Source: Escherichia phage ECO103 4-12-1 | Sequence record: OR844650 | Reading direction: 5' to 3' (one strand) | Length of the DNA stretch: 64,000 bases | In this document: piece after piece, positions 39,616 through 45,141 of the stretch | Position numbering within the stretch: the stretch's first letter is position 1 | How the letters are laid out: each line of letters begins with the position of its first letter | Made by a program: the position numbers and the translations under genes | The notes under the pieces: model-generated | The model's input: only the letters and a program-made list of their open reading frames with translations | The model's database searches: none | What the model was told of the DNA's origin: nothing

Positions 39616-42600
39616 ATGTACTCAATAAAAACTGACTTAGATATTACTGGTGCTGGTACGGTTGGTAAGGATCTTTTAGTCAAAGGAAATGCTGTTTTCA
39701 ACAATAACCTAACTGTAAATGGTACTGTAACTTTTGCAAATGCAACTTTTACTGCCATTGAATCATCAACTGCCAACATTACATCTACTTTAGATGTAGG
39801 TGGCAAAGCAACACTTTCTGGTGGTCTTGGTGTTGAGGGTAATACTACAATCGGTAGTGCAGTTGTCGGGTCTGATACAGCAACAATTAATTCAAACGCT
39901 ACCTTTAACGGTACTGTATCAGTTGGTTCTGATTTTACACAAACTGCTGGTACAACCACTCTACAAGCAACTAAAGTTAAAAACTTAGAAGTTGCTGAAA
40001 CAACAGCATTTAAAGGTAATATTACTGCTGATGTTGGGACTACTGCTGCATTTGATAAAATTACTGCTAATACCGCAGAAATTACTAATGTAAGTACAAC
40101 AGATATTAGTAGTACTGGTACTGCTACATTTAACGATGTGACAATTAGTGGTACACTTGGTGGTGAGTTTAATCTATCTGACTTAAATGCAGTAACATTG
40201 AACGTTACTGGTGCATCTAACCAACAAGGTGCAGTAACTTTCGGTGCTAACGTAACTGGTATTAACAGTACTGCTACTTTTAAAGACATTCGTATTGGTT
40301 CTAACTCTGAATCACAAACCTTCAGATTAAGCTTCCCTTACACTGCTCCTGGTAAACGCCCAACTGTTATTCTACAAAACGAAATTCAGTCCGAGCTAAT
40401 GTCACCTGCAAACTTGACAGTATTGACCTCTGCTTCTTTTGGTAATGCGTCATTATCTTCTTATGGTATTACTGGTAATGGTCTAAACAAATTAGATTAT
40501 CTAACAGTTTCTGGTAACAATACACAATCACCAGACACACCACTATTAGAAGTTCAAAAAGGAAAAACTAAAGTTGCTGACTTTGAAGTAACCGGAACTG
40601 CAACTATTCCAAATATCGAAAGTACTGGTACTGCTAATTTTAATAACATTAATGTTTCTGGTCTTCTTGGTGGAACGTTCCAACTAGACGATATTAATGC
40701 AGTATCTTTGAACGTTACTGGTGTAACTTCATTAGTTGGTGGTGTTACTCTTGGTTCTAATATTACTGGTTATAACAGTACTGCATCCTTTAAAGCTATC
40801 AGCTTAGGTCAAAATAGTCAAGATGCGGCAGTGAAACTAGGTTTTGGATATACTGCACCAGGTCAACGCCCAACAGTTATTCTACCTAACGAAGTTCAAT
40901 CAGAAGTCGTTTCTCCTTCTACATTGAACGTTCTTAAAACAGCAACTTTCGGTAACGCTTCTCTTTCCACTTATGGTATTACTGGTAACGGTCTAAACAA
41001 ACTAGATTACCTAACTATTACTGGTAACGAAACACAAGCTCCAGGTACACCATTCCTACAAGTTGGTGGTAAAGCAATTCTTAATGATGTTGAATTTACT
41101 GGAACAGTAACTGGACTAACTGTTGATGTTAGTGGGCAGGATCTAACACCTAATTCTGTTGTCGCGGCAGCAAATATTAAAGGTGCAACACTTGAAAGTA
41201 CTGGTAACACTACCGTGGGTGCTAAACTAACTGTTACTGGTGATATTGCTGGTACAACTGCAACTCTTTCTGGTGCATTATCCGCTGGTTCAGTAAGTTC
41301 TGGTTCTATTACTGGTACAACTTCTGTATCTGCACCAACAATTAGTGCATCTACTGAAGTAACGGCCCCTACTATCACTGCGAGTGGAACTGTAAGTGGG
41401 CAAACAATTAACGGTACTAATATTAGTGCAACAACTCTGACTGCACCAACTATTAGTGGTAATACTAACTTTACAGAAAATGTTGATATTACTGGTAGCT
41501 TAACTGTTGGTTCTCTAGACTTGAGCACTACCGATATTAATGCTAAATCAATCACTACTACTGCTGGTGCAACTATTGGTGGTGATTTAGTAGTTCAAGG
41601 CTCTTTTGATTTATCAGCAGCCGACCTTAATGTTAAATCATTAACTACTTCTGGTATTGTTAAAAGTAATGATCTTGTTAATGCTAACGTACTTCCAGTA
41701 CTTAATAGTACTACCATAACGGCAACTACTGTTAATGCTGATGATATAACTGTTACCGGATCTGCTAATTTGGGTACAATTTACTCAAGCTCATCTGTTC
41801 TAGTTGGGTCAACTTTAACTGTAACTGGTGAAACTGCAACTGCATCGTTGGTTACCCCAACCATTTCAAATGCAAGTGGTGTCACTATTTCCAATAATAC
41901 AAATGTAACTGGTGACCTAACTGTTACTGGTGCAGTTATTCCAGGCTCTATCGATCTAGCAACAACTGATGTTAATGCTAAATCCATTACTACTACTGCT
42001 GGTGCAACTATTGGTGGTAACCTAACTGTTAATGGTACAGTAGATCTTACTACGGCTGATGTTACTGTCAAATCTTTAACTAGTACTGGTGCAATTGTTA
42101 GTAATGAATCCACAATTAGTAGTGTTCTACCTAAACTTCAAAGTACTGATGCAACTATTGCAACCCTTGGTTCAACAACTGCAAATATTACTAATTTGAA
42201 TGTTACTGGTGCATCTACCGTAGCTGACGTAACTTCTTCAGGTAAAGTTAAAGCAGTTTCTGTAGAAACCCCAACAATTAGTAACGTTGATGGTGTATCT
42301 ATTTCCAATAATACATCTATTACTGGTGACCTAACAGTTTCTGGTACAGTAACACCAGGTGCAATTGATTTGAGCACAACTGATGTAAGTGCAAAATCCA
42401 TTACTACTACCGCTGGAGCAAATATTGGTGGAGATCTTGTTGTTTCTGGTACAGTTGATTTAAGTGGTGCTGATGTATCTGTTAAATCTCTAACAAGTAC
42501 TGGTATTATTACAGTTAGTAGTGCAGAAGGTATCAACGTTCTACCTAAAGTTCAAAGTACTGAAGTTACAGTGTCTGCTCTAAATGCAACAAATGCAGTA

Positions 42601-45141: not shown

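Follow-up and report, generated by a model that had tools for sequence, protein, structure and literature searches.

How does a long phage fibre come by its length, and is that length still changing? The question is raised by an open reading frame (ORF) on the plus strand of a 64,000-nucleotide (nt) stretch of DNA from Escherichia phage ECO103 4-12-1 (sequence record OR844650), here called the window. The ORF occupies positions 39616-45141 (5526 nt) and codes for 1841 amino acids (aa); it corresponds to gp571 of phage 121Q, the name used below. Our reading, to which we assign a probability of about 85%, is that this gene encodes a structural protein, a long virion fibre of Asteriusvirus, whose shaft is made of duplicated modules and has been reshaped by unequal recombination.

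That the gene encodes a tail fibre is already known: it has been sequenced, annotated and detected by proteomics, and it behaves as expected of phage fibres. Its nucleotide sequence is identical (100%) to that of 121Q, SHEFM2K, vB_EcoM_G17, Sharanji and vB_EcoM_E9.1, and 99-99.9% identical to that of phAPEC6, SP27 and slurp01. The phages that match it closely are jumbo myophages of ~350 kb, belonging to the genus Asteriusvirus (121Q-like phages of E. coli). In the 121Q record, gene 571 is labelled ‘tail fiber protein / long tail fiber proximal subunit’, and its neighbourhood is a tail/virion block consisting of gp574 (tail protein), gp573 (colanic-acid-degrading, tailspike-like), gp572, gp571, gp570 and gp569. 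The earlier note on this DNA had called the product a fiber from the letters alone, and three lines of evidence agree with it. The protein matches the PHROG 4549 profile (‘tail fiber protein’) over its full length in seven stretches (E 5.6e-227, 756.9 bits). It also matches, at a phmmer E of 3.7e-30, the long tail fibre of phiTE, a flagellotropic Pectobacterium myophage (PDB 9CUY/9MJN chain g, 793 aa, UniProt K9L5R6), which is the only solved relative. Finally, phAPEC6 gp256, a ‘tail fiber protein’ of 180.38 kDa, was found with 15 unique peptides by mass spectrometry of purified virions (PMC7247149).

The fibre can be divided as listed here, with all positions given in the window.

39616-45141, plus strand: tail-fibre gene, 1841 aa, 121Q gp571 = phAPEC6 gp256 (ORF scan, PHROG 4549, phAPEC6 virion mass spectrometry)
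39616-40077, plus strand: N-terminal region, aa 1-154, presumed virion-attachment end (near-invariant alignment columns MYSIKTDL...)
40078-40587, plus strand: module A copy 1 (A1), aa 155-324 (BLASTP; hidden Markov model, HMM, E 1.8e-102)
40588-41097, plus strand: module A copy 2 (A2), aa 325-494 (BLASTP, HMM; 66.7% nt and ~59% aa identity to copy 1)
41449-41883, plus strand: module B copy 1 (B1), aa 612-756 (BLASTP, alignment, HMM)
41884-42297, plus strand: module B copy 2 (B2), aa 757-894 (BLASTP, alignment, HMM)
42298-42762, plus strand: module B copy 3 (B3), aa 895-1049 (BLASTP, alignment, HMM)
42763-43182, plus strand: module B copy 4 (B4), aa 1050-1189, clear homology limited to the first ~70-100 aa (BLASTP E 9e-18 to 8e-11)
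43219-43956, plus strand: two degenerate B-like units, aa 1202-1335 and 1343-1447 (profile E 8e-4 and 7e-6; BLASTP offsets 303-726 aa)
43543-43878, plus strand: unit C, aa 1310-1421, single here (repeat search, isolate comparison)
44824-45138, plus strand: C-terminal beta-sandwich tip domain, ~aa 1737-1841 (AlphaFold2, Foldseek, homologue positions)

Module A is 170 aa (510 nt) long and stands twice in tandem at 40078-41097. Composition-corrected BLASTP aligns the two copies at E 1e-63 with 57-65% aa identity; their nt identity of 66.7% rises to 75% in one 216-nt stretch. Module B, of 138-155 aa, is present in four tandem copies at 41449-43182, with periods of 435, 414, 465 and 420 nt, and each copy contains a sub-repeat of ~35 aa (105-nt spacings; z 3.4 at lag 35). 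Pairwise BLASTP E values for B range from 1e-41 to 8e-11 overall and from 1e-41 to 1e-33 among B1, B2 and B3. The nt identity of the B pairs is 56-71%, with B1/B4 and B2/B4 at 56%, which is the level of random in-frame segment pairs taken from the fibre gene itself (55.6 ± 3.3%); B4 is thus recognisable at the protein level only. Further along, unit C is bracketed by a direct repeat (...GGTGG(A/T)AC(T/A)TTAGGTGTAACTGGT) at 43524-43566 and 43860-43902, 336 nt apart. The shaft as a whole is long and beta-strand-rich, with very high contents of Thr, Gly, Ser, Val, Ala and Asn.

These modules were found by a gapless repeat search together with protein self-comparison, in which 170-aa pieces of the fibre served as BLASTP queries; self-BLASTP of the whole protein returned the identity match only. 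Tandem Repeats Finder reported trivial short arrays and neither A nor B modules, since the copies are less than 70% identical. The earlier note had proposed a tandem duplication of about 500 bp at 40111-41085 and about four copies of a module of about 420 bp at 41441-42930. Both arrays are real and its boundaries fall within ~35 nt of ours at three of the four positions, the B array being ~250 nt longer than was proposed. The repeat identity of ~70-75% given there is, however, too high except for the best stretches, and the self-comparison does reveal a periodicity beyond compositional bias in A1/A2 and in B1-B3.

Is the array still changing? We placed allele differences by profile counting and multiple alignment of the orthologous genes in public genomes. 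Ten records have a gene of 5526 nt and UB has one of 5880 nt; its length is 6390 nt in both JP4 and CRJP21, 5505 nt in ph0011 and 5484 nt in UE-S1, and all the alleles compared are intact and in frame. The locus, the flanking genes and the N- and C-termini are the same across the orthologues of UB, JP4, CRJP21, ph0011, UE-S1 and PBECO4; relative to the gene studied here, aa identity taken over 100 residues at a time is 91-100% in UB, JP4 and CRJP21 and 72-99% in ph0011 and UE-S1. The large length differences fall at just two sites, module A and unit C, and the rest are small indels of 6-7 aa. In the wider family module A occurs in 1-3 copies and module B in 1-5, and the protein is 1065-2129 aa long.

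At the first of these sites, JP4 and CRJP21 carry three A modules (+170 aa) against two in the 121Q type, and the copy in the middle is chimeric. Over its 5′ 360 nt, 109 of the 125 informative sites match A2; over its 3′ 150 nt, 34 of 41 match A1 (Fisher P 1.7e-16). The breakpoint lies between module columns ~358 and 372, within the best-conserved part of module A, and is adjoined by the longest exact match between A1 and A2 (19 nt, 40460-40478 = 40970-40988). In the window the corresponding feature is:

40435-40478, plus strand: stretch of A1 comprising the JP4/CRJP21 crossover interval (module columns 358-372) and the adjoining exact match (site typing)

The resulting order, A1-[A2|A1]-A2, is precisely what an unequal crossover would yield if A2 of one genome recombined with A1 of another. 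At the second site, the 112-aa unit C is tandemly doubled in UB, JP4 and CRJP21 and single in the 121Q type. The doubled copies share 92.3% nt identity with each other and 89-90% with the one copy of 121Q, which fits a duplication within the UB/JP4 lineage. The duplication that gave A1 and A2 is old, as orthologous A copies are more alike across phages (82-98% nt identity) than paralogous copies are within one phage (~66%).

We propose that modules lying out of register undergo unequal homologous recombination, and that the array is probably still being reshaped in this way. One A2 × A1 crossover would have made the three-A allele of JP4 and CRJP21, and a duplication between the short direct repeats 336 nt apart would have made the two-unit-C allele of UB, JP4 and CRJP21 (+112 aa). 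Because such changes are in frame and module-sized, the shaft would be lengthened while both ends stay untouched. The earlier note had suggested length evolution by unequal recombination, and the chimeric third A copy bears this out; its expectation that repeat number may vary between isolates also holds, with two or three A modules and one or two C units in close isolates. An effect on host range, which it had raised as well, is unsupported. Both allele lengths occur in phages of O157:H7, and the fibre shows no more divergence than the genes beside it: the short 121Q allele is found in vB_EcoM_E9.1, isolated on O157:H7, and the long alleles likewise come from O157:H7 phages. No excess divergence of the kind expected of a diversifying hotspot was seen in the fibre of UB, JP4 and CRJP21 (flanks 96-99.9% nt identity, fibre 91-100% aa identity), and in ph0011 and UE-S1 identity drops in flanks and fibre together.

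What lies at the two ends of this shaft? The N-terminal 154 residues are nearly invariant in the Asteriusvirus-type family, and this end is presumed to be the virion anchor. The C-terminal domain is modelled by AlphaFold2 with a predicted local distance difference test score (pLDDT) of 85 overall and above 90 in its core. A Foldseek search of BFVD with this domain finds 162 viral fibre proteins at E ≤ 0.001, tblastn finds it in 339 phage records, and in an exhaustive homologue search it always stands at the extreme C-terminus of relatives of 285-2120 aa. The C-terminal domain of homologues, including a 184-aa C-terminal fragment, carries the precomputed Pfam label PF26209.2, and the two most distant homologues carry the precomputed label PF26208.1. 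We infer that the C-terminal domain is a generic distal tip, borne on shafts of freely variable length, that would contact the receptor. The fibre is laid out as a presumed N-terminal anchor, two A modules, four B modules, degenerate B-like units including unit C, and a small conserved beta-sandwich domain of a type that many phage fibres have at their distal end. No Pfam or NCBIfam family scored above threshold with the fibre. The bactofilin family (PF04519) reached 14.6 bits with the full protein and 19.9 bits with aa 1-195, below its gathering threshold of 27.9, and we take this as a hint of beta-helical repeats only.

As for dimensions, the phiTE fibre is a trimer, and its unmodelled remainder was predicted to be a highly extended beta-helix, 512 Å in total (PMC11972413). 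By analogy gp571 would be a trimer with a beta-structured shaft. Scaling from phiTE at ~0.65 Å per residue would give a fibre of ~120 nm in total, and each added module might lengthen it by ~7-11 nm (~7 nm for unit C and ~11 nm for module A).

The composition of the fibre has a further consequence on the opposite strand, where seven ORFs of at least 96 aa lie over the gene in one shared antisense frame:

39546-40289, minus strand: shadow ORF, 247 aa, the longest; gp549 in the PBECO4 RefSeq record (ORF scan, codon shuffles)
41007-41555, minus strand: shadow ORF, 182 aa (ORF scan, codon shuffles)
41781-42113, minus strand: shadow ORF, 110 aa (ORF scan, codon shuffles)
42138-42536, minus strand: shadow ORF, 132 aa (ORF scan, codon shuffles)
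42552-42842, minus strand: shadow ORF, 96 aa; gp550 in the PBECO4 RefSeq record (ORF scan, codon shuffles)
43137-43790, minus strand: shadow ORF, 217 aa; inside the PBECO4 gp551 region (ORF scan, codon shuffles)
44091-44714, minus strand: shadow ORF, 207 aa (ORF scan, codon shuffles)

Across the gene only 31 stops fall in this frame; the remaining antisense frames have 135 and 231. A stop in it requires NNY-TAN (Tyr) or NNT-CAN (His or Gln) in the sense strand, and the frame is poor in stops because these residues are rare in the fibre: Tyr, His and Gln together make up 3.0% of it, and other window genes have 6-12.6% of them. We compared the gene with 2000 shuffles of its sense codon order and found neither ORF length nor stop depletion beyond what the sense codon content gives. 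Without the gene’s own stop codon, 30 shadow-frame stops were observed against 32.2 ± 3.6 in the shuffles; the longest antisense open run was 281 codons against 225 ± 60 (P 0.15), and runs of at least 96 codons numbered 7 against 5.8 ± 1.4. The antisense ORFs are thus fully explained by composition. The earlier note was right to call them spurious, though it counted five at 41007-44714, where there are six, with the seventh at 39546-40289. A similar situation is seen elsewhere in the window: the 769-aa ORF at 27203-29512 (minus strand) is also low in Tyr, His and Gln (6.1%) and has an antisense stop-free run of 163 codons, and the plus-strand 156-aa ORF opposite it (27228-27698) is probably another shadow ORF.

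The PBECO4 record (NC_027364) deserves a separate comment. Its fibre ORF stays open for 1641 codons until the linear record stops at its 3′ end, and it resumes at the record start as gp001, a C-terminal fragment labelled ‘YadA domain protein’. The break lies within unit C, the duplicated unit of 112 aa, and ~70 nt at the record start are out of frame. As to the label, a YadA-like trimeric autotransporter adhesin was considered and rejected: no YadA head, stalk or anchor Pfam family was found at E ≤ 1 with the full protein or at E ≤ 10 with the C-terminal 241 aa.

Several other explanations of these observations have to be weighed. One could suppose that the periodicity is a mere compositional bias of a low-complexity protein rich in Thr, Gly, Ser and Val, without true duplication. 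The within-gene nt background is indeed high, B1/B4 and B2/B4 do not exceed it, and short TVxG-like motifs recur 13-29 times along the whole gene. Yet the composition-corrected matches of A1 with A2 and among B1, B2 and B3 lie at fixed offsets of 170, 145 and 138 aa, the modules are colinear across alignments of 140-170 aa, and both A and B can be recognised as separate units in phiTE and in other, distant relatives. For A1-A2 and B1-B3 this explanation is already refuted, and for the periodicity as a whole we regard it as highly improbable. Another thought is that the copy-number differences are errors of assembly, that is, collapsed or expanded repeats, and not biological alleles. The broken PBECO4 record, with its ~70 garbled nt at the start, speaks for it, and so does the fact that unit C copies 92% identical over 336 nt are similar enough to trouble short-read assemblers. 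On the other hand, A copies that are ~66% identical are far too diverged to be collapsed or expanded, and the extra copy, chimeric and in frame with one clean breakpoint, is identical in JP4 (sewage, China) and CRJP21 (river water), two isolates independent of each other. The doubled unit C, in turn, is shared by three independent assemblies, its copies differing from each other at 26 fixed sites, and the reading frame is kept in all alleles. Misassembly therefore seems quite improbable overall: it is unlikely for the extra module A and is less firmly excluded for unit C.

That at least one of the minus-strand ORFs is a real overlapping gene, as PBECO4 RefSeq annotates, is hardly credible. The ORFs are long (96-247 aa), three have been deposited as coding sequences (CDS; gp549-551), and a few sigma-70-like motifs can be found on the minus strand. 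Nevertheless, their stop count and lengths agree with the codon-order shuffles, all of them lie in the one frame whose stops require rare codons, and there are 12 promoter-like motifs where shuffled sequence gives more (17.6 ± 4.2). They are annotated in no other record that holds the complete fibre CDS, and the PBECO4 calls arose only because the true fibre ORF leaves the record end. A quite different proposal concerns the role of gp571, which might be a proximal half-fibre of the T4 gp34 type; its C-terminal domain would then dock a hinge and a distal fibre (gp570, gp569), on the pattern of T4 34-35-36-37, and would not be a receptor tip. The main reason for keeping this proposal is the DUF4376 protein encoded downstream (gp570). 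The label ‘long tail fiber proximal subunit’ (gp34-type) is carried by 121Q, UB, SP27 and ph0011, but it is unsupported by homology, as BLASTP of the fibre gave best E values of 1.8 against T4 gp34 and 0.14 against gp37, that is, no similarity. We consider such a role rather unlikely.

Our own reading, that of a long fibre with a recombining modular shaft, also has points that weigh against it. The AlphaFold2 monomer of aa 140-900 (A1 to B2) has a mean pLDDT of only 47.9, so the beta-helix geometry of the shaft, its trimeric state and the nanometres per module are inferred only. The solved model of phiTE is limited to residues 14-171, which have no counterpart in gp571. Within the virion, gp571 could sit at the baseplate or could be one of the ‘hairy’ fibres of sheath and capsid; long, unusual fibres of this kind have been seen on both in 121Q and phAPEC6 virions. 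The fibre alleles have no linked phenotype, and the papers on JP4 and Sharanji hold nothing specific on a gp571-type fibre. Finally, copy numbers were taken from public assemblies, and the break of the PBECO4 record inside unit C indicates that the more similar repeats can disturb assembly.

The immediate surroundings of the gene include two signals:

39486-39514, plus strand: terminator-like hairpin (13-bp stem) followed by a T run, which ends 121Q gp572, the gene upstream (hairpin search, sequence)
39606-39610, plus strand: ribosome-binding site GGAGG, 5 nt 5′ of the ATG (sequence reading)

Directly 3′ of the fibre, at 45206-45985 (plus strand), lies the gene for a 259-aa protein, 121Q gp570, which scores 34.5 bits with Pfam DUF4376 (cutoff 25). 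It has weak PHROG tail-fibre matches and no solved relative, is absent from the phAPEC6 virion proteome table, and could be a fibre chaperone or connector. Two genes 5′ of the fibre, at 36424-38565 (plus strand), is the gene for a 713-aa protein with the label ‘colanic acid degradation’ (PHROG 6117, E 3e-264). The pectate-lyase-like beta-helix family PF12708 stays below threshold in it (24.3 bits, cutoff 27), and ~aa 90-230 match tailspike and tail-fibre profiles; it is probably a depolymerase tailspike. Further upstream, a 3333-aa ORF (17165-27166, plus strand) follows a 1153-aa gene of baseplate-wedge size and corresponds by size to phAPEC6 gp245 (381.9 kDa), which has been detected in virions. 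In most Asteriusvirus genomes megablast with the fibre gene returns 2-5 matching places per record, which suggests that these genomes have a paralogous fibre-like gene at another site; a search for such a paralogue within the 64-kb window found none.

What follows from the module map and the allele series? The locus is a clean natural case of fibre shaft growth by whole modules, in which the hybrid junction copy is still readable. Besides an exact module map and a series of unequal-crossover alleles, the analysis yields corrections to two existing annotations, that of PBECO4 and the gp34-type label. Minus-strand ORFs over the fibre gene should not be called, although NC_027364 carries three of them as hypothetical proteins, and the ‘long tail fiber proximal subunit’ label has been copied between records without sequence support. 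The natural length variants (+170 aa and +112 aa), with their identical ends, could be used to study shaft length against adsorption in this poorly understood group of jumbo phages, which is possibly flagellotropic. SHEFM2K, which has the identical fibre allele, is cited as flagellotropic, at second hand, in a passage of PMC11895373. Together with the phiTE relative, this circumstantial evidence makes it conceivable, though in our view doubtful, that gp571 is the flagellum-engaging fibre of Asteriusvirus phages. If that were true, the natural alleles, whose lengths run from 1827 to 2129 aa in steps of whole modules, would give fibres that differ in reach or flexibility on the flagellar filament, and they would offer a ready-made system for relating fibre length to flagellotropic adsorption.

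How does this fibre compare with known systems? In work of Tetart et al. from 1996 (J Mol Biol), T4 gp37 is said to have internal repeats, and host-range mutants reportedly arose by duplication of a small gp37 domain. The principle is the same in T4 gp37/gp34 and in gp571: a long fibre has internal repeats, and in-frame duplications arise by recombination between them. The modules of gp571 are, however, much larger (112-170 aa), they have no detectable sequence homology to the T4 proteins, and no phenotype is known for them.

The phiTE fibre stands closer. It is less than half as long as gp571 and has a single module A (residues 171-322, directly after the modelled N-terminal part; A profile E 7.8e-24) and a few B-like units (E 3.4e-8). 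The N-termini of the two fibres differ: phmmer gives no gp571 alignment to phiTE residues 1-170, the helical ‘rip-cord’ bundle and globular domain of phiTE (residues 14-171) have no counterpart in gp571, and the N-terminus of gp571 is beta-rich. In phiTE the ‘rip-cord’ bundle binds the sheath initiator and the wedge. At the opposite end, the tips are homologous (phmmer domain E 8e-14 for phiTE residues 614-792; Foldseek E 2.5e-13). Fibres of rV5-like, phAPEC8-like, KpS8-like and uncultured phages have the same C-terminal beta-sandwich fold in their BFVD models, and among the fibres that share this tip domain the shafts, whether collagen-like, a short beta-helix or of other kinds, are unrelated.

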